From positions 98,599 to 162,598 of the forward strand of contig JAFWLT010000006.1 of assembly GCA_017510925.1 (NCBI GenBank): a stretch of 64,000 nucleotides of DNA, given 5' to 3'. The DNA comes from Candidatus Saccharimonadota bacterium (GTDB lineage Bacteria > Patescibacteriota > Saccharimonadia > Saccharimonadales > Saccharimonadaceae). Position 1 is the first letter of the stretch. Every line of letters starts with the position of its first letter. The notes below the pieces were generated by a model. It ran no database searches. It saw nothing but the letters and a program-made list of their open reading frames with translations, and was not told the DNA's origin. The translations under genes were made by a program, and so were the position numbers. Of this stretch, positions 604 to 31,267 are shown in pieces.

Positions 604-731
604 ACCTTAATTGTACCATATTTGCTAGCCGGAATTTTACACAGGAAAACCACACTTTTTTTCACAGTTAACATAAGAATTTTTAGACCCTAAACCTGTT
701 ATGCTAGCAACCAGTTTGGCTAGCAACCAAC

Positions 732-760
732 TTGACAAACCAAAATGCCTAAGCTAAAAT
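732..760 (+). promoter_or_regulatory. canonical sigma70-type promoter
   Basis: TTGACA (732-737), 17-nt spacer, TAAAAT (755-760). The predicted transcript starts near 767 with hairpin CAACTTGGCA/TGCCAAAGTTG (768-793). Confidence 0.5.
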
Positions 761-923
761 TGAAGTATCAACTTGGCAACCCTGCCAAAGTTGGGAGCAT
801 TAGAGAGTTACGTCTACCGACTAGGGAAAAAGCCGGAGTTTTTGCATTCATAAGCGTAATGCAATATAATGCTTAAGCAGTCAACATAATTCACGTGCTT
901 ATTTATGTGATATAATTGAGTTT

Positions 924-1829
924 ATGGAAATTCCAATTACGCAAAGTAAGGAATGGGAGCAGTTACAGCAAGACCTTAAAGAGCCTAGCTTTTACAGGGA
1001 AGAAGAAGGCTATCAATATCTAGCCATCAAAAAACATATTCCTGGAGGTTGCTACCTCTATTTACCTTATGGCCCTGTGGCTGAAGCTGCCAAAGATTTT
1101 AAAGCTGCGTTACAGGATCTTCAGGAATTAGCCAGGGAAGAGAACGCTGTTTTTATCCGTATTGAGCCAAGAAATCCAAGTTTTATCAAGAATTTTCCAA
1201 AAAATACCAAGAAATCTCACGATTTGAACCCTAAAGAAACTTGGGTGCTAGATCTTACTGGCGCCGAAGAAGAATACAAGGCCAAACTTCCATCTAGACT
1301 ACTTAGGTACTATAGAAACAGGGAGAAAAATGGAATTACAATTGAAACTTCCAAAAACCCAGATGATATTAAGTATCTCCTAGATCTTCAAAGAGCCCTA
1401 GCCAAAGAGAAAAATATCAGCACGTTCTCAGAGGACTATCTTAAAACTGAGCTCAGCCAGCCATTTGCTACACTATATCTTGTAAAGCAAGAAGGAAATA
1501 TTATCGCTGCCGGCTTAGTATTTGACCACGGTAAAACTCGTTATAATCTCCAGGGCGCTCAGACCGACGAGGGAAGAAAGCTCCACGCCACCGGTATTCT
1601 CACGATTCAGCTGATTGAAGATGCTAGGGAAAAAGGTCTAGAGCTGTTTGATTTCTGGGGTATTGCGCCAGAAGGTGCTCCAAGTACGCATCCGTGGGCT
1701 GGATTTACCAATTTTAAGAAGACTTTTGATGGTCGCGAAGTAGATTTTGCTGGTACTTACGATATTATTCTAAAACCAGCCAAATACAAGACTTATAATT
1801 TGCTTAGAAAAATTAGGAGAATGATATGA
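924..1829 (+). CDS. FemAB-family peptidoglycan interpeptide-bridge aminoacyltransferase (short form)
   Basis: 301 aa with FemAB/GNAT-like C-terminal half (YNLQGAQTDEGRKLHATG, FDFWGI). It overlaps the next FemAB gene by ATGA-type coupling. Confidence 0.65.
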   Translation: MEIPITQSKEWEQLQQDLKEPSFYREEEGYQYLAIKKHIPGGCYLYLPYGPVAEAAKDFKAALQDLQELAREENAVFIRIEPRNPSFIKNFPKNTKKSHDLNPKETWVLDLTGAEEEYKAKLPSRLLRYYRNREKNGITIETSKNPDDIKYLLDLQRALAKEKNISTFSEDYLKTELSQPFATLYLVKQEGNIIAAGLVFDHGKTRYNLQGAQTDEGRKLHATGILTIQLIEDAREKGLELFDFWGIAPEGAPSTHPWAGFTNFKKTFDGREVDFAGTYDIILKPAKYKTYNLLRKIRRMI

Positions 1830-2881
1830 CTTTTGAGGAAATCACCGAGGAAGAATTTAGAAATTTTGCCAAAAGCAGCCCCTACAAATGCTTTATGCAG
1901 ACTCCGGAAATTGCAAAATACAGGGAATCAAACGGCTGGACGGCATACTATCTTGCAGCCAAACACGGCAGCGAAATTAAAGCTGCCTCTATGCTCGTAG
2001 CTAAACCATATTTTCTCGGTAAATCTATCTTTATCGCTCCTGGTGGCCCACTTTTAGACCTAGAAGATCAGCCACTCACTGATTTCTTTATGAGATCTCT
2101 CAAGAAATACATCAAGTCTCACAACGGCTACGTGCTTCATATCAGTCCGTATTACGAAACCGTAGAAAGAGACCGTCACGGCGACGCAGTGCCAAATGGT
2201 TTCAATCATAAAGATGCTACTAAGAATTTAAGGAGCCTCGGTTTCATCGAACTTAAAGACGCTTCCCAGCCAAAATACATGTATGCTCTAGACTTAAATG
2301 GCAAAACTCCCGAAGAATTGATGGCAGATTTCAAGAGCAACACCAGAGGTCATATCAGAAAAGCCGAAAAAATGGGTGTCACTGTTCGCGAACTGAAAAA
2401 AGAGGAACTTGGCATTTTTAAAGAAATTACTGAGTCTACTTCTAAACGTCGCGAGTTTGAAGACAAACCTTTGAAATATTACGAACAAATGTACGATCTC
2501 TTCGTCCCTCGTGGCGAAGCATTATTCCTAGTAGCAGAAGCAGATAATATCCCTATGTCAGCAGCAATGTTTATGCTCTATGGAGACGAAGTAGTCTATC
2601 TCTTCTCCGGTAGCGATGAAAAGTATATGAAAGACTACAACGCTCAATACGAACTCCAATGGTATATGATCAAATATGCTGCTGAGCACAAGTTCAAGCG
2701 CTACAATTTTTATGGTATTCACGGCCTCCCGGACGACGCTCATCCAGATGGCGTTTATGAATTCAAGAAAGGTTTTGGTGGCCAAGTCATTGAGATGATC
2801 GGGACCTATGAGCTCCCAATCGATCAAAAATTCTATCAAGCTCAAAAATTCCTGAAAAAGCTCAAAAACAGGGGTAAATAA
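1826..2881 (+). CDS. FemAB-family (FemX/MurM-like) peptidoglycan bridge-formation protein
   Basis: 351 aa with typical FemAB N-terminus (FMQTPEIAKYRESNGW) and C-terminal YNFYGI...GVYEFKKGFGG. Confidence 0.85.
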   Translation: MTFEEITEEEFRNFAKSSPYKCFMQTPEIAKYRESNGWTAYYLAAKHGSEIKAASMLVAKPYFLGKSIFIAPGGPLLDLEDQPLTDFFMRSLKKYIKSHNGYVLHISPYYETVERDRHGDAVPNGFNHKDATKNLRSLGFIELKDASQPKYMYALDLNGKTPEELMADFKSNTRGHIRKAEKMGVTVRELKKEELGIFKEITESTSKRREFEDKPLKYYEQMYDLFVPRGEALFLVAEADNIPMSAAMFMLYGDEVVYLFSGSDEKYMKDYNAQYELQWYMIKYAAEHKFKRYNFYGIHGLPDDAHPDGVYEFKKGFGGQVIEMIGTYELPIDQKFYQAQKFLKKLKNRGK

Positions 2882-5031
2882 TGCAGAATTTTTCCAAGAA
2901 TCACCCCATTTTGCACATCGTTTTAAAAAATACTTTTACGCTCTTTAATCTCGTTAACCTGATTTTGGCTCTGATGGTGGCCTTTGTGGGGAGTTTCAAA
3001 AATATGCTCTTTATTTTTATTGCCATCGCTAACACCTTGATTAGTATTATCAACGAAGTTAGAGCCTACAAAATTGTCAAAAAAATGCGCCTTATCACCG
3101 AGCAAAAACCTACGGTGATTAGAGAGGGTAAAACCATCCAAATTTTAGCCGAAGAAATAGAAAAAGGCGATATTGTGGTTTTAAGTCTAGGCGACCAAAT
3201 TTTGTATGATAGCGTACTAGAAGAGGGTGTCCTAGAAGTTAACGAATCCTTTATCACGGGCGAACAGGATAGCATCGAAAAGCACCCAGGCGACGAGCTG
3301 ATCTCTGGTAGCTTTGTAGTGGCTGGCACGGCTAAAGCAAAGGTGGAAAAAGTAGGGGAAGAAAATACTATCACCAAGCTAGAAAAAGAAGCCCATCATT
3401 TAAAAACTGCCGACTCCAAGCTATTCACCCTTATGAACAAGATCGTCAAATACATCTCTTACACTCTTATTCCAGTGGGGGCACTGCTCCTTTGGTCTAG
3501 ATTTAGGACTGAGTCCGAAACTGCCACGGCCGTAACTAGCACCGTAGCAGCTCTCATTAATATGATCCCAGAGGGCCTAATTCTTTTAACTAGCTCGGTC
3601 CTTGCTCTTGCTACCATCAGGCTATCCAAACGCAAAGTTCTTGTCCAAGACCTCTATTCTATCGAGACTCTTGCTCGCGTAGATACCATTTGTTTAGATA
3701 AAACTGGCACCCTCACCTCTGGTAATATGGTGGTTCACGATTTCATCTTGCCAAATGGCGATACGTTTAAAAAAGCTACCACGGAAGGACCCCCAGCCGA
3801 AAAATCGCTTCTAAGGCCTCTAAACGCCATTCTGAGCACTCAAATGGCCGAAAACGCAACCACTAGCGCTTTGAAGAAAGCCATGCCAAAAAACGCCAAT
3901 TTTGGCGAAATAAAGGGCATTGTGGATGTTGTCCCCTTTAGCTCAGATCGTAAATGTTCTGGTTTTAAGACTAAAGACGCCGAATATCTCATGGGCGCCA
4001 TTGAATTCCTCACGGATGACAAGGAAGTAATCAAACAGGTAAAGTCCTATGCCGGTGATTATCGCGTGATAGCCGTAGTAAAAAATAAAGAATATCTAGG
4101 TTGTATTAGATTAAAGGACGAAATCAGAAAGAACGCGCCACAAATTATCCAGTATTTTTATGATAACGACATCACACCAAAAGTTATTTCTGGCGACGAT
4201 CTAGAAACGGTCAAAACTATCGCTGAGGCAGTTGGGATTAAGGATCTAGATGGTGTAGATCTTTCTACCGTCAAAGACCTAAATTACGACAAACTCGTCA
4301 AAAATTATTCTATTTTTACCCGGGTTAAACCAGAGCAAAAGAAGTCTTTGATAAAGGCCCTCAAAAAGATGGGCAGCACCGTCGCTATGACTGGTGATGG
4401 TGTCAATGACATTCTTGCTATGAAAGAAGCTGACTGTTCTATTGCCATCGGCGAGGGCTCCGATGCTGCCCGTCGCTCGGCAAAATTAGTACTTCTAGAT
4501 TCTGATTTTGACCGTGTTCCGTCTATCATCGATGAAGGGCGTCAGTCTATCAACAACCTAGAACGTTCCACTAGCCTTTTCTTGGCTAAAACCGTCTACG
4601 CCACCACGCTGGCCGTGATTTTTGTCCTAGCGCCTCTAAGCTATCCGTTTAGCCCGATAGAAATGAGCTTACTTAGCTTCGCCTGCATTGGTTTTCCGGG
4701 CCTAGTTTTAGCACTAGAAAAAAATACAGCCAGGATCAAAGACAAATTCACCTACAACATCAAACATTATTCTGTCCCTACGGGCATTGCAGTGGCCACA
4801 GCTATGGTTATTCTTTCTATCATTGCTACCACTAATAATTTCAGTAGAGAAAAACTCACCACTCTCTCTGCCATCATCGTCTTTTCTATTGATATGATTT
4901 TGATCTATAAGGTCTCACGCCCACTCAATCTCTTTCGTGCAGCTCTTATTGCTGTCATTATCGCCATTTTCCTTTGTGCGCTCTTTATCCCATTTATTCA
5001 AAATTTCTTTGAATTTACTTTGGCTTGGTAG
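2881..5031 (+). CDS. P-type cation-transporting ATPase (HAD-IC family)
   Basis: TGE (ITGEQD), phosphorylation motif CLDKTGTLT, hinge TGDGVNDILAMKEAD, multiple TM helices. Confidence 0.9.
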   Translation: MQNFSKNHPILHIVLKNTFTLFNLVNLILALMVAFVGSFKNMLFIFIAIANTLISIINEVRAYKIVKKMRLITEQKPTVIREGKTIQILAEEIEKGDIVVLSLGDQILYDSVLEEGVLEVNESFITGEQDSIEKHPGDELISGSFVVAGTAKAKVEKVGEENTITKLEKEAHHLKTADSKLFTLMNKIVKYISYTLIPVGALLLWSRFRTESETATAVTSTVAALINMIPEGLILLTSSVLALATIRLSKRKVLVQDLYSIETLARVDTICLDKTGTLTSGNMVVHDFILPNGDTFKKATTEGPPAEKSLLRPLNAILSTQMAENATTSALKKAMPKNANFGEIKGIVDVVPFSSDRKCSGFKTKDAEYLMGAIEFLTDDKEVIKQVKSYAGDYRVIAVVKNKEYLGCIRLKDEIRKNAPQIIQYFYDNDITPKVISGDDLETVKTIAEAVGIKDLDGVDLSTVKDLNYDKLVKNYSIFTRVKPEQKKSLIKALKKMGSTVAMTGDGVNDILAMKEADCSIAIGEGSDAARRSAKLVLLDSDFDRVPSIIDEGRQSINNLERSTSLFLAKTVYATTLAVIFVLAPLSYPFSPIEMSLLSFACIGFPGLVLALEKNTARIKDKFTYNIKHYSVPTGIAVATAMVILSIIATTNNFSREKLTTLSAIIVFSIDMILIYKVSRPLNLFRAALIAVIIAIFLCALFIPFIQNFFEFTLAW

Positions 5032-7818: not shown

Positions 7819-10059
7819 ATGCCTGCATCGAGACGAAGAAGAAACACCAAAAGAACCACAAAAAGCGCTAAGTCTACACGCTCCAAAGCTGCTAAAAAAG
7901 CAGCCGAAAGAGAAGTAAATAGCGACTACGAACTTCCTGGTGGTTTTTGGCACCAGATCTTCGCCGTTTTGATGATTGCATTATCACTATTTTTTGTAAT
8001 TACTTGGTTTGATCACGGTGGGTCTTTCTTAAATGCCACTCACAAAGTTATTTTAGAAGGGATCGGCATTGCTACCTACGCTATCCCAATGATTTTGGTT
8101 TACCTTGCCGTTAAAATTTTCCGTTCAGACAATAATCGTGTGGCTGTACCAGTTTATATTTTTAGTCTTTTAATGCTTCTATGGATTGCTGGCATCGGTG
8201 CCATTTGGCAAAATGGTGGCGTGGTAGGTGGCTGGCTTAATGGCGTAATGCTCCAAGTCTTAGACCAAGGCTTTGTAATTGTTATTTACATTCTTTTGAT
8301 TTTTATTACTCTAGCATTTATTCTCCAGCTTTCGCCACTAGCGCTCTTTAGAAATACCAAAAACATTGCCAAAAGAGAAAAGAAAGTAAGAGAAGACGAA
8401 AACGAGGAAGACGACGAAAAAGGCCATCTAGAGATTAAAGTGAATTCCGGCACTTCCGAAGTTAAAGCTCCAGCTCTCAAAGTTAAAAAAGGTGGGTTCC
8501 TAAAACGCAAAATTCGCGAACCAGAGCCAGAAAAAGAAGAGAAGAAAGAAGAAAAAACCCCAACTGCACTTGTGGCTGTGGACGATCCAGATTGGAAAAT
8601 GCCACCAATCGACCTTCTTACCAAAAAGCAATCACCGGCAGATGCTGGCAATATCCAGCAGAATGCCATCATCATTAAAGACACCTTCTCGGAATTTGGT
8701 ATTGATGTAGAAATGAAGGGCGCGAATGTTGGCCCTCGCGTCACGCAATATACATTGAAGGCTCCAGGTGGCGTCAACCTTTCTAAGATTGCGGCCCGTG
8801 ACAAAGAGCTTGCCTACAAATTGTCTGCTAAGACCGTTCGTATCGAAGCACCGATTCCAGGTACTCAACTCATTGGCGTAGAAGTGCCAAACATTCGCGC
8901 TGAGGGCGTATCTCTCCGTGGCCTAATAGAGTCCGACGAATGGAAACACGCTCACGACCCACTTACTTTTGCTGTAGGTAAAAACATTTCTGGTAAGCCA
9001 ATTCTTTCAGACCTCACCGATATGCGCCACCTCCTCATTGCTGGTACTACTGGTTCGGGTAAATCTGTAATGACTAATACAATCATTATGTCACTTCTTT
9101 ATCGCAACTCTCCATCAGATATGCGTCTTATTATCGTAGACCCAAAGCGCGTGGAGATGGCTGTTTATAAGGATATCCCACATCTATTAACGCCAATCAT
9201 CAACGATACCACCAAAGCTCTTTCTGCTATGAAGTGGGCAGCTTCCGAAATGGACCGTCGCTACACTATTATGGAAGAGCAAGGCGTCAAAACCATCTCT
9301 GATTACAACGAAAAAATGGCTTCAAAGTCCGACGAAGAAAAGAAAGACGGCGAAAACGGCAAGATGCCATACATCGTAATCGTGATCGACGAAATGTCCG
9401 ATCTTATGATGCAGGCAGGGAAAGAACTAGAACCTTTGATTGTTCGTATTGCTCAGCTCGGTCGTGCTGCTGGTATGCATTTAGTACTTGCTACCCAGAA
9501 GCCTATCGTTAAAGTGATTACCGGTCTTATTAAGGGCAACATCCCGTCTCGTATTGCTTTCCGTGTATTAAGCTCTATGGACTCTCGTATCATTCTCGAT
9601 ACCTCCGGCGCCGAGAAACTCCTTGGTCAGGGCGATATGCTCTTATCAAGCGAGCAAACCTCAAACGGCCCAGAACGTATCCAGGGTGCCTGGACACCAG
9701 ATGGTGACATTAAGAAAGTTACCGATTTCCTTCGCGCTCAACGTCCACCTCAATACAACGAAGAGGTTACCGCCCAAGCTGTCAACATCAAAGGTGGTGG
9801 AGGTGGCGAAGGTGGCGAATTTAGCCGTCGCTATGACCCACAGGACCCACTAGTAAGAAAAGCCGTAGAAATATGTATTAATAACGGCAAATTCTCTACT
9901 TCACTTCTCCAGGCTCACTTAGGTAAAGGACACGGCTACGTTGCTGGTCTCGGTTATTGGCTAGAAAGTATCAATGCTATTGGCCCAGTTAATGGCACTA
10001 AACCACGCGATATTCTCGTCTCCTCAATGGAAGAGTTCGATGAACTTGCCAGCCAGTAA
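7819..10059 (+). CDS. ftsK: DNA translocase FtsK/SpoIIIE
   Basis: Basic N-terminus then TM helices; Walker A GTTGSGKS; Walker B VIVIDEMSD; gamma-like C-terminus. The start is set at ATG 7819 because the longer track ORF overlaps the tRNA. Confidence 0.9.
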   Translation: MPASRRRRNTKRTTKSAKSTRSKAAKKAAEREVNSDYELPGGFWHQIFAVLMIALSLFFVITWFDHGGSFLNATHKVILEGIGIATYAIPMILVYLAVKIFRSDNNRVAVPVYIFSLLMLLWIAGIGAIWQNGGVVGGWLNGVMLQVLDQGFVIVIYILLIFITLAFILQLSPLALFRNTKNIAKREKKVREDENEEDDEKGHLEIKVNSGTSEVKAPALKVKKGGFLKRKIREPEPEKEEKKEEKTPTALVAVDDPDWKMPPIDLLTKKQSPADAGNIQQNAIIIKDTFSEFGIDVEMKGANVGPRVTQYTLKAPGGVNLSKIAARDKELAYKLSAKTVRIEAPIPGTQLIGVEVPNIRAEGVSLRGLIESDEWKHAHDPLTFAVGKNISGKPILSDLTDMRHLLIAGTTGSGKSVMTNTIIMSLLYRNSPSDMRLIIVDPKRVEMAVYKDIPHLLTPIINDTTKALSAMKWAASEMDRRYTIMEEQGVKTISDYNEKMASKSDEEKKDGENGKMPYIVIVIDEMSDLMMQAGKELEPLIVRIAQLGRAAGMHLVLATQKPIVKVITGLIKGNIPSRIAFRVLSSMDSRIILDTSGAEKLLGQGDMLLSSEQTSNGPERIQGAWTPDGDIKKVTDFLRAQRPPQYNEEVTAQAVNIKGGGGGEGGEFSRRYDPQDPLVRKAVEICINNGKFSTSLLQAHLGKGHGYVAGLGYWLESINAIGPVNGTKPRDILVSSMEEFDELASQ

Positions 10060-10106
10060 TAGTTCAACCTATGCGTTTTTCGTGTAAGTTGTGATATAAT
10101 GAGAAT

Positions 10107-11102
10107 ATGGAAAAACAGCTAGAAATCTACAAAATCAACAAAGGCGAAGTGATTTTTGACATAGATGTTGAAGAAGAAACGATTTGGGCAAGTATAGATC
10201 AGATAGCAACCATTTTTGATGTAACTAGAAGAAGTATAGAAATTCACCTAAAAAATGTATATGCCGATGGCGAATTAGATGAAAATCGAACCGCGAAAAA
10301 ATCTTTCGTAGTTCGTCAAGAAGGTACTCGTCAGGTTCGTCGTGAGGTAAATATGTACAACCTTGACGCTATTATCTCTGTCGGTTATCGCGTTAATTCT
10401 AAGAAAGCTACCGATTTTCGTGTCTGGTCTACAAAGGTTCTCCATAATTATCTTACTAAAGGCGTAGCTATCAACGAGAGAAGGCTCAAATCTATAGACT
10501 CCAAGAGATTAAGAGAAGTAGAAAATATGATGGGCGTTGTCAGACGCTTGATTACTCGCCAAGCCCTTGATGCCGGTGAAGCCAACGGCGTTCTCGAGGT
10601 GATTTCCAAATATTCCACCAGCTTCAAAACTTTACAAGAGTACGATGATGGGTATATTGATCTTTCTGGGATAAATAATAAAAGCTCCAAAAAAGAAAAG
10701 AGGCTTACTCCAGATTTTTGTATAGAGGTAATTGACGGTCTCAAAAAGTCCGTGAACGGCAGCGACCTCTTCGGTAAGCCTAGAAACGACGCTTTTAAAG
10801 GTTCAATTGAAAGCATTTATCAGAGCTATAACGGGAAAGATCTTTATAAAACTACTGCCGAAAAAGCTGCTCATCTTTTATATTTTGTTATTAAGGACCA
10901 TCCGTTTTATGACGGTAACAAACGTATCGGTTCGCTTCTTTTTATCGTCTTCCTCACGATGAACGGTGAAAACCTCACAAAGAACGGTGAAACCAAAATT
11001 TCAGATCGCGCTCTTACGGCGTTGGCGCTTCTTATTGCTGAGTCTAATCCATCTGAGAAAGAGCTTATTACCTCTCTTGTCAGAAAACTTCTAGAAGATT
11101 AA
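10107..11102 (+). CDS. RhuM-family protein with C-terminal Fic/Doc-type domain
   Basis: The N-terminus ([20 protein letters not shown]...[18 protein letters not shown]) is RhuM-like. The C-terminal [15 protein letters not shown] matches the Doc-type variant (NKR) of the Fic motif. Confidence 0.75.
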
Positions 11103-18859: not shown

Positions 18860-19758
18860 ATGTCATCAAAGGTTTATTTTACTAAAGATATTTCGCCAGA
18901 AAGTTTAGAAAAAGTTTACAAGGCCCTGAATCTAGACATTACAAACGGTGGCAAAAACAAAGTTGGAGTTAAAGTTTCTACCGGCGAAGACGGAGCCAAG
19001 GGCTACCTCAAGCCTGAGCTTATCGGTCCATTTGTAAAATCTCTAAACGGCACGATCATCGAATGTAACACTGCCTACCCAGGCGCCAGAAACACCGCTG
19101 AGGATCATATCGAAGTCGCCAAAAACACGGCTTCACTAGCTATGCTGATGTTGACATTATGGACGCCGAAGGCGAATTTGAAATCCCTGCACCAAAAAAC
19201 AGCAAGCACCTAAAATATGATCTTATCGGTGAGAATTTCAAAAACTATGATGCCATTGTTAATCTAGCCCATGGCAAAGGCCATGCCATGGGCGGCTTTG
19301 GTGCCAATCTCAAAAATCAATCCATCGGTATTGCCTCAAGAAACGGCAAAGCCTATATTCACTCTGCCGGCAAAACCAAAAGTCCTAAGCTCTGTTGGAT
19401 TTCTAAGCACAAACAAATCGATTTTATTGAATCCATGGCCGAGGCTGCCACTGCCGTTTCTGATTACTTAAAAGAAGAAAACAAACCTATTATATATATT
19501 ACAGTAGCCAATGCACTTTCTCTAGATTGTGATTGCGATTCCAAACAAGGCGACCCGGTGATGAGCGACATCGGTATTTTCGCTTCACTAGATCCAGTCG
19601 CTAACGACCAGGCATTTATCGATGCTATCTGGGCTTCAAAAGACAAAGGAGCAGAAGACTTGAAAGAACGTATTGACACTCGCGAAGGTCGTGCCATCTT
19701 ACCTTATGCCGAAGCTCTTGGCCTTGGCTCTACCAAATACGATTTGATCGAAATCTAA
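18860..19758 (+). pseudogene. DUF362/COG2768-type protein interrupted by a 1-nt frameshift
   Basis: ORFs 18860-19213 and 19159-19758 join into one protein if one extra A is added to the A5 run at 19121-19125 (...EVAKKHGFTSYADVDIMDAEGEFEIP...). Confidence 0.7.
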
Positions 19759-19782: not shown

Positions 19783-22107
19783 ATGAACCGTTTAGTTTTA
19801 ATTGACGGAAAATCGGTATTTTATCGTGGCTACTATGCCATGGGAGCTTTGAGCCTTCCAGATGGCACGCCTACTGGCGGCGTTTATGGATTTGCTGCTA
19901 TCTCTATGGAAATTGTCAAAAAGTTGAACCCTACCAAGGTAGTAGTGGCTTGGGATTCCAAGACTTCTACTTCCAAAAGAAAGGCTCTTTTCAAAGATTA
20001 CAAAGCCGGCCGTATTAAACCAGGCGAAGATTTTTACGCGCAAATTCCACTTCTAGAAGAACTTGTAAAAAATCTTGGCTGGAGTTTTGTGGAACTAAAT
20101 GATTATGAAGCCGACGACATTATTGGCACCTTATCCGAGCAAGCTGACGAAGCAGGAGACTACGAGACTTATATTATTTCATCAGATCTCGATATGCTCC
20201 AAATTGTAGATGAAAACACTCACATGTGGAGAATACTAAAAGGTTTTTCCAATATTGAACAGATCGATATTAAAGAAATAGAAGAAAAATACGGCATCAA
20301 AAAATCTCAGTTCCTGGACCTCAAATCTCTAAAAGGCGACTCCTCGGACAACATCCCGGGTGTGCCTGGCATTGGTGAAAAGACTGCCGCCAAACTTTTG
20401 AATGATTATGGAGATTTAGATGGGGTATATAATAATCTAGACAAAATCACTGGCTCTACTAAAACCAAGCTCGAAGCAGGGAGAGACTCGGCTTACCTTT
20501 CTAAAAAACTTGCCAAAATTATGTTCGACGCCCCGATCAATCTCAAGGACATCCCAGACTTCAAATTCAACAAAGACAACGTAATCGCCGGCTTAAAGAA
20601 ACTCCAATTTAACTCCTTAATCAGGAAAATAGATGATAATTTTGAAATTAAAAAAGAAACAGTAAATAATATAGATATTAAAATTGATAAAAATATAATT
20701 GTTAATAACGACATTAAATCTTTGATGCATAATGATAAGACTATTGCAGAGAAGATTGAGCAGGGCGCTAAATTCTGGGATCTTTCTCAGGCAGCCTTTT
20801 TGCTAGACCCACTCGCAAGAGAGCTTCCACCTCTGATCGATCCAGCCCAAGAATATAAAGATCAAGTAGCAAAATTCCAAAAGCTCCCAAGACTATATAA
20901 TATATACGCAGACTTCGACCTTCCTCTCATTCCTGTGCTTTACAAAATGGAAGAAAAGGGGATGCTCTTAGATCGTCAATATTTTGCTAAGCTTCGCGTA
21001 GAATACGAGGAAGAAGTAAAAAATCTTGAACAAAAAATTTATACGCTCGCCAAAAAAACTTTCAATGTAAACTCTCCAATTCAGCTGTCAGAGGTGTTAT
21101 TTACAGACTTAAGCCTACCAGTAAAGGGCGTCAAGAAGACCTCACGTGGTTACTCAACCGGTGCAAAAGAATTAGACAAACTAAAAAATGCTCATCCCGT
21201 GGTGTTAGAAATTATCAAATATCGTGAAGCTTCCAAGCTCTTAAATACCTACATCATCCCGATGCCAAACTTGGCAGACAAAGAGGATAGGATTCATACC
21301 ACCTTTACTCAAAACGTTACGTCTACTGGGAGATTAAGCAGTAAAGATCCAAATCTCCAAAATATCCCAGTCAGGACCGAAGAAGGGAAGAGAATCAGGA
21401 CTGGCTTTATTGCTGGGGAAGGTCGCACTCTAGTTTCTGCTGACTATTCTCAATTCGAATTAAGGTTAGCTGCAGTTCTAGCTGACGACAAAGAATTAAT
21501 CAAAGATTTCAACGATGGTGTCGATATCCATACCAAGACTGCATCAGAAGCCTTTAATATCCCAATAGCAGAGGTTACCAAGGCCCAACGTCGTGCAGCT
21601 AAGGCTATTAACTTCGGCATTATTTATGGTATGAGCATTAATGGCCTGGCTGAAGCCACCAAGATGAGCTATTACGATGCCAAGAATTTTATGGAGAATT
21701 ACTACAAACTTAGAAGCCCTATTATGAACTTTATGAAAAAGACTCTAGAAAAAGCCAGGACCGAAGGATTTGTTGAGACCTACTTCGGCCGTCGCCGTCC
21801 AACCCCAGATGTAAAGTCATCTAACTTCATTATTCGCCAAGCTGCTGAGCGCGCTGCTCAAAATATGCCGATCCAGGGAACAGAAGCTGATCTAATGAAG
21901 CGTGCAATGATTAATATTGATAAAAAACTGCCAAAAAACGCCAATTTGATTATGCAAGTTCACGACTCTTTGATTGTAGAATGTGACGAAAAAGACGCCG
22001 AAGAAATTGGCCAAATCTTAAAGAAAGAAATGGAGTCTGTAGCTCCAGAGCTCAAAGTTAAACTCGCAGTCGACGTCACTAGTGGCAGAAACTGGGGAGT
22101 GTTGTAA
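19783..22107 (+). CDS. polA: DNA polymerase I (5'-3' exonuclease plus polymerase; proofreading domain vestigial)
   Basis: N-terminal 5' nuclease (GYYAM...DYKAGR, GVPGIGEKTA); pol motif A DYSQFELRLAA, motif B RRAAKAINFGIIYG, motif C QVHDSLIVE. Total length is only 774 aa. Confidence 0.95.
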   Translation: MNRLVLIDGKSVFYRGYYAMGALSLPDGTPTGGVYGFAAISMEIVKKLNPTKVVVAWDSKTSTSKRKALFKDYKAGRIKPGEDFYAQIPLLEELVKNLGWSFVELNDYEADDIIGTLSEQADEAGDYETYIISSDLDMLQIVDENTHMWRILKGFSNIEQIDIKEIEEKYGIKKSQFLDLKSLKGDSSDNIPGVPGIGEKTAAKLLNDYGDLDGVYNNLDKITGSTKTKLEAGRDSAYLSKKLAKIMFDAPINLKDIPDFKFNKDNVIAGLKKLQFNSLIRKIDDNFEIKKETVNNIDIKIDKNIIVNNDIKSLMHNDKTIAEKIEQGAKFWDLSQAAFLLDPLARELPPLIDPAQEYKDQVAKFQKLPRLYNIYADFDLPLIPVLYKMEEKGMLLDRQYFAKLRVEYEEEVKNLEQKIYTLAKKTFNVNSPIQLSEVLFTDLSLPVKGVKKTSRGYSTGAKELDKLKNAHPVVLEIIKYREASKLLNTYIIPMPNLADKEDRIHTTFTQNVTSTGRLSSKDPNLQNIPVRTEEGKRIRTGFIAGEGRTLVSADYSQFELRLAAVLADDKELIKDFNDGVDIHTKTASEAFNIPIAEVTKAQRRAAKAINFGIIYGMSINGLAEATKMSYYDAKNFMENYYKLRSPIMNFMKKTLEKARTEGFVETYFGRRRPTPDVKSSNFIIRQAAERAAQNMPIQGTEADLMKRAMINIDKKLPKNANLIMQVHDSLIVECDEKDAEEIGQILKKEMESVAPELKVKLAVDVTSGRNWGVL

Positions 22108-22156
22108 AATCCACATTTAGTGTGCAAAAAGTCCTTGACACCACCATATATAGTGC
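22108..22156. promoter_or_regulatory. two NrdR-box-like palindromes
   Basis: CCACCATATATAGTGC (22141-22156) matches 13 of 16 positions of the consensus acaCwAtATaTwGtgt. AATCCACATTTAGTGT (22108-22123) matches 11 of 16. The centres are 33 bp apart and flank or overlap the -35 box and spacer. Confidence 0.45.
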
Positions 22157-22163
22157 TTATAAT
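22135..22163 (+). promoter_or_regulatory. canonical promoter of the NrdD-like mini-gene
   Basis: TTGACA (22135-22140), 17 nt, TATAAT (22158-22163). Confidence 0.65.
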
Positions 22164-22209
22164 AAATATTAGGTATACTTATAACACTAAATTTTAAGCC
22201 AAAAAGGAA

Positions 22210-22653
22210 ATGTCAATGAAAAAAATAATTTACAAAAATCCTAACGACGCTGAAAATTTCAGTCTCGCACGTTATGCTAAATCTTTAAATAAGTACGCCA
22301 AAGTTTCCGAAAAGGAAATCAAAGACGCACTTAAAGAATTTGACCAATACGAAACGATGCACGTTTCTTGTCTTGTAGAAGCCGGCATCAAATTAATTGA
22401 AAAACACGGCACCAAAAAAGCTGCCAAAGAATACTTTGAAGCTCACGCCGAATATTTTGACGAAGGCAAATTTGAGAGACTTCGCCGTATTACTGGCTAT
22501 CTCGTAGGTACTCTAGATCGCTGGAACGATGCTAAAAAAGCAGAAGAGGCAGCTCGTGTTAAACACTCTGTTAACTCTGCCGTAGACGACGCTACTCGCT
22601 TAGTGATGTTAGAAACTCAAGCGATGGACCACAACATCGCTTACGCACAATAA
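22210..22653 (+). CDS. stand-alone protein with NrdD-type glycyl-radical C-terminal motif (147 aa)
   Basis: RRITGYLVGTLDRWNDAKKAEEAARVKH fits the class III RNR C-terminal pattern R-[IV]-x-G-Y-L...[FW]N-x-[AG]K-x-x-E...RV[KR]H. No catalytic barrel and no CxxC ribbon are present. Confidence 0.6.
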   Translation: MSMKKIIYKNPNDAENFSLARYAKSLNKYAKVSEKEIKDALKEFDQYETMHVSCLVEAGIKLIEKHGTKKAAKEYFEAHAEYFDEGKFERLRRITGYLVGTLDRWNDAKKAEEAARVKHSVNSAVDDATRLVMLETQAMDHNIAYAQ

Positions 22654-22752
22654 AAAAATAAATCTTGGGGCATCAAGCAAAAATCTATGATTTTTGCGCG
22701 CAGAGGTGGAGCGAGGCGAAAGCCTCGCGTAACCCCCAAGATTTATTTTTTT
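22652..22752. repeat. 101-bp compound hairpin with perfect 19-bp terminal inverted repeats
   Basis: AAAAAAATAAATCTTGGGG (22652-22670) pairs with CCCCAAGATTTATTTTTTT (22734-22752). Inner hairpins are GCAAAAATC/GATTTTTGC (22677-22697) and GCGAGGC-GAAA-GCCTCGC (22711-22728). Confidence 0.6.
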
Positions 22753-22782
22753 GTTGTATAATAAGAGTAGTTATGCCAGAGC

Positions 22783-30817: not shown

Positions 30818-31267
30818 ATGGAACAATTTCGAATCGGAGATAGCAAAGTTCTAGAAAGCCGCGAAACTGTTGATGGCACGATGATTCGCCGTAGGCGAGA
30901 ATCATCAGATGGCCACCGGTTTACTACTTACGAACGCATCGAACTTCCTAACCTCACTGTGTTAAAACGTAGTGGCAACAAAGAAGTTTACGATAGAGAC
31001 AAGCTCCTGATGGCAGTCAAGCGCAGTGTCGGCAAATTCTTCAATTCCGAATTAGAAGTAGAAGAAGTAGTTAACCGTGCTACAGACATGCTTTATGGCC
31101 TTGGTACAGATCAGATTACTTCAAAGCAGATTGGCGAAGCCGTGCTAGACGTTCTTGCCGATGTTAATGAGGTCGCCTACGTAAGATTTGCTTCAGTATT
31201 TCGTGAATTCAAAACCCTAGAAGATTTTGAAAACATTCTAAAAGAGCAGAAGAACAAGAAAAAATGA
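30818..31267 (+). CDS. nrdR: transcriptional repressor NrdR (ATP-cone intact, zinc-ribbon cysteines absent)
   Basis: IRRRRESSDGHRFTTYE and the ATP-cone (VLKRSGNKEVYDRDKL...VAYVRFASVF) align to NrdR. All four ribbon Cys positions are substituted. Confidence 0.85.
   Translation: MEQFRIGDSKVLESRETVDGTMIRRRRESSDGHRFTTYERIELPNLTVLKRSGNKEVYDRDKLLMAVKRSVGKFFNSELEVEEVVNRATDMLYGLGTDQITSKQIGEAVLDVLADVNEVAYVRFASVFREFKTLEDFENILKEQKNKKK

Follow-up and report, generated by a model that had tools for sequence, protein, structure and literature searches.

What use has a bacterium for the radical-bearing end of an anaerobic ribonucleotide reductase when that end is encoded on its own, apart from the enzyme it would serve? 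The question is raised by a small gene at 22216-22653 (+ strand) of a 64,000-nucleotide stretch of contig JAFWLT010000006.1, from a Candidatus Saccharimonadota bacterium (GCA_017510925.1). We refer to the whole stretch as the window, and to the gene and its product as the mini gene and the mini-protein, or mini. The product carries the glycyl-radical loop of NrdD, which is the anaerobic, or class III, ribonucleotide reductase (RNR). A first, sequence-only reading of the window had offered two explanations, namely that the protein is the detached C-terminal piece of a split NrdD, or that it is an autonomous spare part. We lean towards the second, believing somewhat more than doubting, on the strength of sequence comparisons, that the mini-protein is a spare part for NrdD in the role that GrcA (YfiD) plays for pyruvate formate-lyase (PFL).

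The coding sequence and its parts are the following, dN/dS being the ratio of non-synonymous to synonymous substitution rates.

22204-22209, + strand: Shine-Dalgarno sequence AAGGAA, 6 nucleotides before the ATG at 22216 and abutting the ATG at 22210.
22216-22653, + strand: coding sequence of the mini-protein, 145 amino acids, with an ATP-cone-like domain, an NrdD glycyl-radical loop and a helical tail; dN/dS 0.075.
22216-22449, + strand: N-terminal domain, residues 1-78, a predicted degenerate ATP-cone fold (AlphaFold2 and Foldseek).
22456-22566, + strand: glycyl-radical segment, residues 81-117, FDEGKFERLRRITGYLVGTLDRWNDAKKAEEAARVKH, matching the NrdD C-terminus.
22495-22497, + strand: GGC codon for Gly94 (numbering of the 145-residue protein), the glycine predicted to carry the radical, in RRITGYL.
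22567-22650, + strand: C-terminal helical extension, residues 118-145 (family alignment and AlphaFold2).

The open reading frame (ORF) list of the window gives this gene as 22210-22653 (+), 147 amino acids from the first ATG, and it was as a stand-alone protein of that length that the sequence-only reading described it. The ORF is present, but its start lies two codons too early: the real start is predicted to be the ATG at 22216, giving 145 residues, because the family consensus begins MKKIIY and because AAGGAA directly abuts the ATG at 22210. A motif of the AGGAAA type before the ATG is kept in other mini loci. The ORF was also said to end in the radical motif; RRITGYLVGTLDRWNDAKKAEEAARVKH is indeed present, yet a further 28 residues come after RVKH.

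That the C-terminus belongs to the NrdD glycyl-radical family is indicated by searches against Pfam, NCBIfam and the PDB, which all agree with one another and with the sequence-only reading. Residues 87-119 (in the 147-residue numbering) match positions 532-562 of the 562 positions of the Pfam NRDD profile (E=2.4e-7), with a score of 30.3 bits against a gathering score of 26.2. The NCBIfam NrdD equivalogs are matched only over their last ~35 positions (E down to 1.6e-12), at 30-47 bits and hence far below their full-length cut-offs of 326-764; for TIGR02487 the match covers positions 550-581 of 581, at 29.5 bits against a cut-off of 326, so that in this profile as in Pfam NRDD it is the extreme C-terminus that is found. 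In the PDB, residues 706-738 of the NrdD of Prevotella copri (8p23) are matched with E=1.6e-5, and as this span includes Gly711, the radical glycine of that enzyme (PMC11226230), Gly94 is the predicted radical glycine of the mini-protein. The RxxGY loop followed by RVKH, a feature of NrdD, was found by all three profile and sequence searches. Of the radical segment's 37 residues, 36 do not vary among 25 close members of the family, position 112 being the exception, and Gly94 is invariant across all family members. The PFL-type Gly_radical family (PF01228) gave no match at E<=10 in the window protein and is not among the families listed for 29 relatives.

Set beside NrdD (PF13597, TIGR02487), the mini-protein thus has a homologous loop, RRITGYLVG...RVKH, and tail, an N-terminal domain with the fold of the NrdD N-terminal ATP-cone, and predicted regulation by NrdR in common with it. 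It differs in having no ~550-residue barrel, Cys finger loop, specificity site or Zn ribbon, and it cannot reduce nucleotides alone. As the sequence-only reading had said of the barrel and the Cys ribbon, only C-terminal positions of NrdD profiles match: the barrel with its catalytic Cys finger loop gave no profile match in Pfam or NCBIfam, and there is a single cysteine, C52, with no CxxC pairs, so the four-Cys Zn ribbon of NrdD is lacking. The mini-protein is in effect NrdD minus barrel and Zn ribbon, a cone, a radical loop and a tail, and it looks like a saccharibacterial nrdD copy with its middle removed.

The N-terminal half was overlooked in the sequence-only reading, which had the radical segment right. 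AlphaFold2 models were made from each of two alignments, the second of them a diverse one, and in the second model the predicted local distance difference test (pLDDT) score is ~90 for the first ~80 residues and ~50-60 for the radical loop and tail, on which grounds loop and tail are predicted to be flexible in isolation; in the first model the radical segment appears as a single long helix, which is uninformative. The N-domain shows the beta-hairpin and four-helix bundle of the ATP-cone (PF03477), and in Foldseek searches of the PDB the top ~20-28 matches of both models were all ATP-cone proteins. They include NrdR of E. coli and S. coelicolor, the cone of Leeuwenhoekiella NrdB, the cones of P. 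copri and S. thermophilus NrdD, and E. coli NrdA, with probabilities up to 1.0 but E-values of 0.008-0.3. The ATP-cone sequence profile was not found beyond a Pfam E-value of 0.11 in one of 29 members, and hhalign lines up residues 5-29 with cones, in register, with P=0.014 and a probability of 3%. The K-R-x-G hairpin that binds nucleotide has K7, R8 and G10 invariant in six real cones, and it is not conserved in the mini family, where variable residues stand at these positions; nucleotide binding has for this reason probably been lost from a domain that is modelled as a degenerate ATP-cone.

The family is large and well kept. At 90% clustering the mini-protein has ~1,870 relatives, and among the best 120 of these clusters the length runs from 143 to 205 residues, nearly all being of 145-146. 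A survey of other genomes for the same small ORF found it in 369 species-representative genomes. The 80 best matches belong without exception to Candidatus Saccharibacteria or Ca. Nanosyncoccus (group G3), and most of these come from ruminant guts; a relative nearly identical to the start of the window was found in a ruminant sample, and in many genomes the mini gene stands among core genes (polA, mutM). Compared in pairs, members of the family show a dN/dS of 0.075 overall, where synonymous sites are largely saturated, and of 0.02 within the radical segment. With this breadth of distribution and these low ratios, a fragment of a full nrdD at an assembly or annotation break is ruled out, and comparative sequence evidence points to a real gene under strong selection. 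The same evidence bears on the idea of a non-functional leftover of a degraded nrdD, to which the fact that the mini-protein holds just the two ends of NrdD lends some colour: 145 residues are kept in hundreds of species, and promoter, operator and Shine-Dalgarno sequence are conserved along with them, so that a pseudogene is effectively refuted by conservation and by the dN/dS, and we give it next to no credence.

Upstream of the gene, and in one case further along the window, lie the elements that bear on its regulation.

22135-22163, + strand: sigma-70 promoter, TTGACA (22135-22140), a 17-nucleotide spacer and TATAAT (22158-22163); 12 of 12 consensus matches.
22108-22123, unstranded: NrdR box 1, AATCCACATTTAGTGT, conserved as nntCCAcATTTAGtGT in orthologous loci.
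22141-22156, unstranded: NrdR box 2, CCACCATATATAGTGC, filling the promoter spacer and conserved as cCaCtAtATaTaGcGt.
22107-22115, + strand: degenerate DnaA-box-like 9-mer AAATCCACA, covering the left edge of NrdR box 1, with two mismatches in the window copy.
30818-31267, + strand: gene for an nrdR-like repressor, presumed to act on the boxes in trans (Pfam ATP-cone E=3e-15, Zn_ribbon_NrdR E=6e-10).

The canonical promoter had been recognised from the sequence, together with two NrdR boxes 33 bp apart from centre to centre that were taken to tie the gene to nrd regulation. Box 2 does fit 13 of 16 positions of the NrdR consensus, but sites of that quality number two in the window against 1.8 expected, which is not above chance, and since a consensus count on a single sequence is not significant the claim needed comparative evidence. 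This is supplied by the orthologous loci, 79 of 81 of which share the order box 1, A-rich tract, TTGACA, box 2 within the promoter spacer, TATAAT. Their box centres are 32 or 33 bp apart, corresponding to a spacer of 16-17 bp (17 bp in the window); in vitro, binding of four NrdR proteins has been found at box spacers of 14-17/18 bp (PMC12051234). Scanned over 1.36 Mb of Nanosyncoccus DNA, a position weight matrix for the lineage, built from the boxes of orthologous mini promoters, gives 164 boxes of high score; 162 of these fall at the mini promoter, to which the pair is therefore nearly unique. Paired 16-bp boxes, a 17-bp spacer, overlap with the promoter and an nrdR gene in the window are all present, and by these operator criteria the mini gene is predicted to belong to the NrdR regulon, as first proposed. 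Because the two boxes occupy the promoter spacer and the upstream flank, the gene should be de-repressed together with nrdDG when deoxynucleoside triphosphates (dNTPs) are needed.

The nrdR-like gene directly follows ftsZ, and in its product four of four Zn-ribbon cysteines are replaced (MEQFRIGDSKVLESR...RRRRESSDGHRFTT). As the operator boxes are strongly conserved despite this, it would be, by prediction, a zinc-less NrdR that still binds DNA. A second regulatory input is hinted at by the sequence TT[AT]TCCACA, which occurs in either orientation <=72 bp upstream of the -35 element in 62 of 79 orthologous loci (L001-L080), mini promoters holding 65 of its 93 occurrences in the 1.36 Mb. The recurrence of this DnaA-box-like sequence just upstream of NrdR box 1 suggests a coupling of the mini gene to DnaA. 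Coupling to DnaA is known for nrdAB of E. coli.

A confidently folded N-domain under selection, and a very strong promoter, would also suit a regulator or decoy that competes with NrdD for the activase NrdG, stores or quenches the radical, or uses its cone to bind the cones of NrdD or NrdR and so tune RNR activity or repression. ATP-cones do mediate oligomerisation in NrdD, NrdB and NrdR (PMC11226230, and the PDB matches above). We nevertheless regard such a role as improbable. The strongest constraint falls on the radical loop, with 36 of 37 positions invariant and a dN/dS of 0.02, as would be expected if radical chemistry is used; the nucleotide-binding residues of the cone are not conserved; and the split operons of phages, described below, show such modules as a working radical domain.

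To choose between a split enzyme and a spare part, the form of NrdD in the Saccharibacteria has to be considered. A search with a piece of NrdD C-terminus bearing the family-specific FERLRRI led to contigs with saccharibacterial nrdD. Two of these contigs are NCBI metagenome-assembled genomes labelled Ca. Saccharibacteria from the same ruminant data set (GCA_017404405.1 and GCA_017404905.1). Eight nrdD 3' ends were recovered (L168, L169, L171-L176), all with Zn ribbon, radical loop and tail: the end of the barrel is followed by a Zn ribbon of the form CGF..CPSCGR, the enzyme's own loop LFERLRRITGYLVGSLERWNDGKKAEEAARVKH and a tail of ~30 residues, and nrdG comes next after nrdD on every contig recovered. 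The two contigs that include the 5' end (L168 and L169) have an N-terminal ATP-cone as well, and from their genes the length of saccharibacterial NrdD is estimated at ~780 residues. The signature FERLRRI is common to the mini and to the radical domain of this enzyme, and RVKH is followed by GVYTP[DE]EK in the full-length enzyme and by GVYTPEEK or GQYTVEEK (G[VQ]YTPEEK) in sister subfamilies of the mini. The nrdDG promoters of L168 and L169 share with the mini promoter the design TTGACA-NrdR box-TATAAAAT, with a second box 33 bp away.

Since saccharibacterial NrdD is complete and shares both FERLRRI and the tail motif with it, the mini-protein is predicted to be a paralogue of a complete resident enzyme, and the two genes are predicted from their operators to be co-regulated. 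The relationship resembles that of GrcA to PFL rather than that of the parts of a split gene, because the saccharibacterial nrdD genes keep their own radical domain and are followed by nrdG. Of the two explanations first offered, the detached piece of a split NrdD is accordingly disfavoured for Saccharibacteria; the autonomous spare part is the better one, given complete nrdD-nrdG pairs in the phylum, although we infer it rather than observe it.

Some apparent exceptions were traced to assembly. A split saccharibacterial nrdD, suggested by ORFs of ~108 amino acids annotated as 'NrdD' on long contigs, was rejected, these being artefacts of N-runs or low coverage in scaffolds. The saccharibacterial nrdD is often broken by N-runs or at contig ends (L168 7818-10327; L169 7975-10327; L171, L174 and L175), and gene callers emit 'NrdD' fragments of ~100-220 residues from such broken genes. 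Minis could likewise be counted as nrdD in comparative genomics, because they pass the Pfam NRDD gathering score, and fragments and true 145-residue minis together may distort analyses of nrdD presence, absence and phylogeny.

That a radical domain can be encoded apart from its enzyme is seen in phages. A library-wide HMMER search brought up a second set of stand-alone radical-domain proteins, which we call family B, and 80 viral loci encoding them were examined (L084-L163, from IMG/VR). They are of ~90-250 residues, end in FERIRRITGYLVGTLDRWNDAKRAEE.DRVKH and are encoded on >569 viral contigs. Members such as those of L128, L139, L162, L085 and L099 are like the mini-protein in standing alone, in ending in a radical loop and in having no Zn ribbon, and differ from it in an unrelated N-domain, beta-alpha-beta-beta in form, and in being obligate subunits where they are coupled to an nrdD body without the glycine. 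In at least 18 of the 80 loci the family B gene comes after an nrdD body, with barrel and Zn ribbon, that stops just before the radical Gly. In L128 (4163-6721), L139 (4064-6655) and L162 (4070-6721) the last residues of the body are ..ETIRRIK, ..EKVRRIK or ..ETIRRLK, its stop and the start of a small gene for 87-100 amino acids overlap, and nrdG follows. In this arrangement the phage operons encode truly split class III RNRs, in which the radical domain would act in trans; that such action is feasible follows from its being encoded apart from the nrdD body, which itself resembles what oxygen cleavage at the glycine leaves. The searched literature gave no description of a split phage nrdD or of the family B proteins.

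In the other 62 of the 80 viral loci (for example L086, L091 and L095) the family B gene is an orphan with no nrdD or nrdG within 6 kb, and these genes are candidates for spare parts that a phage brings to the NrdD of its host. They are comparable, as stand-alone orphan phage minis, to Y06I of phage T4, a phage homologue of GrcA (PMC13450708). The window's own family has a phage member too: L164 (Logan ERR13731209_9283, an 82-kb contig with portal and NinG genes) encodes at 10001-10423 a protein 73% identical to P0130, with no NrdR boxes and no nrdD nearby.

A further phage, Eggerthella phage EL753P1 (L082, OP172808.1), has at 680-4140 an annotated nrdD of 960 residues with an intein-like insert and without the radical domain, which is encoded ~370 nucleotides downstream, past an ORF of 102 residues. 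Five extra bases lie there between the RRI and TGYL codons, and may reflect a frameshift, an error in sequencing or an element that intervenes.

Such phages give a precedent for reading the mini-protein as the obligate small subunit of a two-piece class III RNR, in which the resident NrdD has no radical domain and depends on the mini for one at all times. Phages do have split nrdD-mini-nrdG operons, the nrdD of EL753P1 also stands without a radical domain and has one encoded downstream, the mini is co-regulated by NrdR, and no nrdD has been seen from the window's own genome. All eight recovered saccharibacterial nrdD 3' ends argue otherwise in keeping Zn ribbon, loop and tail, the apparent splits among them being N-runs or low-coverage scaffold errors; moreover the mini adjoins nrdD or nrdG in 0 of 80 genomes, and the phage subunits carry a different, unrelated N-domain. 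The coupling to a Gly-less nrdD body and nrdG that marks the phage systems was likewise not found within 10 kb of the mini, in the 80 Nanosyncoccus loci or in the window. We think an obligate subunit unlikely. A comparable division is known from the class II RNR of Pseudomonas aeruginosa, NrdJa/NrdJb, which also has a C-terminal functional module as a separate polypeptide; it differs in RNR class, in having no glycyl radical, in that its genes are adjacent and in that both pieces are required (PMC9669993).

The closest functional parallel for a spare part is GrcA (YfiD) of E. coli, like the mini a small stand-alone protein and a C-terminal paralogue of the radical domain of a large enzyme, and like it found in cells and in phages (PMC13450708). 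The logic presumed for both is that the partner's own activase puts the radical in place, and that the module stands in for a domain cleaved by oxygen (PMC13450708). The 145-residue mini is just such a small autonomous protein, with a radical domain paralogous to that of a full-length enzyme. It differs from GrcA in that its partner family would be NrdD and not PFL (there is no PF01228 match), in having a folded, ATP-cone-like N-terminus where GrcA has a disordered tail, and in standing under NrdR boxes, and its function is a prediction. It would work like GrcA, yet it is no homologue of it beyond the shared superfamily.

As a spare part for NrdD, the mini-protein would receive its radical from NrdG, on Gly94 of the free flexible loop. 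The module would then dock on an NrdD whose radical domain had been cut at the glycine by oxygen or had swung out, and its loop would enter the barrel and restore the generation of the thiyl radical. An exchange of this kind is plausible because the NrdD radical domain is a mobile rigid-body element, as seen by cryo-electron microscopy and hydrogen-deuterium exchange (PMC11226230). The cone-like domain, its KR..G motif lost, would probably be a docking or solubilising adaptor in place of the Zn ribbon, and for an epibiont with a tiny genome it may pay off under oxygen pulses to make a module of 145 residues instead of a whole new enzyme.

Several observations weigh against a spare part and have kept our preference for it modest. 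The search for a partner near the gene, by tblastn with E. coli NrdD and NrdG and a clostridial-type NrdD (L083) together with a motif scan, returned the mini itself as sole match: neither nrdD nor nrdG was found in the 64-kb window, in the 10 kb beyond its start (L177), or within 10 kb of the mini in 80 related Nanosyncoccus genomes, the complete nrdD-nrdG pairs being on other saccharibacterial contigs. A full-length nrdD and a mini were not found together in one genome, shared flanking genes and locus-tag prefixes giving no link. An nrdD has been reported in G3 (McLean 2020), and that report could rest on the mini gene itself, as the 145-residue proteins match the Pfam NRDD model. A Zn ribbon precedes the radical loop in every full-length NrdD recovered and is part of the radical domain in P. 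copri NrdD (PMC11226230), whereas the minis have none. AlphaFold2 confidence for the isolated radical loop is low in both models, the ATP-cone call draws on a predicted structure whose Foldseek E-values are weak and on next to no signal in the sequence, and the steps of the mechanism are drawn from sequence and predicted structure.

The missing neighbour also leaves room for a different partner, such as the NrdD of the bacterium on which the epibiont lives or another glycyl-radical enzyme, or for the gene being the remnant of an auxiliary gene from a prophage. To this may be added that a member of the same family occurs in a phage genome (L164) and that Saccharibacteria are obligate epibionts. 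Yet the loop is NrdD-type and not PFL-type, with no Pfam Gly_radical match; chromosomal copies have NrdR operators where the phage copy has none; the gene stands among core genes (polA, mutM) in many genomes; and neither a signal peptide nor a secretion context is present. We consider it very unlikely that the partner is anything but the resident NrdD.

Spare parts for the resident NrdD would be new to the literature. A June 2026 review of glycyl-radical enzymes knows spare parts only for formate lyases and calls their existence for other glycyl-radical enzymes 'yet to be determined' (PMC13450708), in line with the remark in the sequence-only reading that none had been described for RNR; nor did full-text literature searches find a stand-alone or split NrdD radical domain. 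The mini-protein is a concrete and testable candidate of this kind for the anaerobic RNR, an enzyme both essential and oxygen-labile. If the role proposed is correct, ultra-small epibionts of mouth, gut and rumen would survive oxygen pulses by making a 145-residue module and not an enzyme of ~780 residues, the radical domain of RNR would be a separable module, as the phage split operons already argue, and the ATP-cone would gain a further role. The mini-protein is also predicted to give RNR and radical S-adenosylmethionine biochemists a small soluble substrate of NrdG.

A wider proposal, to which we give slightly less than an even chance, is that class III RNRs have a widespread and unrecognised layer of exchangeable radical cofactor proteins, of at least two unrelated families, that NrdG activates and that insert into NrdD in trans. 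The first family would be the cone-fused one of host-associated Saccharibacteria and their phages, and the second the beta-alpha-beta-beta one of hundreds of gut phages. Their modules would be obligate subunits of naturally split enzymes or spare parts rescuing an oxygen-cleaved enzyme, orphan phage copies would keep dNTP synthesis of the host running, and in the cone-like domain the ATP-cone would have been put to a new use, as an adaptor for docking.

Beyond the gene itself, one further element lies on its downstream side.

22647-22757, + strand: structured inverted repeat followed by a U-run, 111 nucleotides, with the mini gene on one side and mutM on the other; probably a terminator or a small repeat element.

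Its 24-nucleotide arms are 96% complementary, and folding yields a dG of -46 kcal/mol (z = -6.6). The element is not kept downstream of mini orthologues, and partial copies occur elsewhere, in L008 and L003; from sequence, a small repeat element serving also as terminator is likely. Rfam gave no match in the mini leader or in this 3' structure. In a protein of 3,962 residues (P0121), 58 repeated stretches match residues 108-142 of the mini-protein, in its helical tail, and this may be a coiled-coil or low-complexity coincidence. Finally, at 18860-19758 (+) of the window there are two overlapping ORFs, of 117 and 199 residues, of which just the second matches PF04015, over profile positions 72-200; together they look like one DUF362 gene interrupted by a frameshift.

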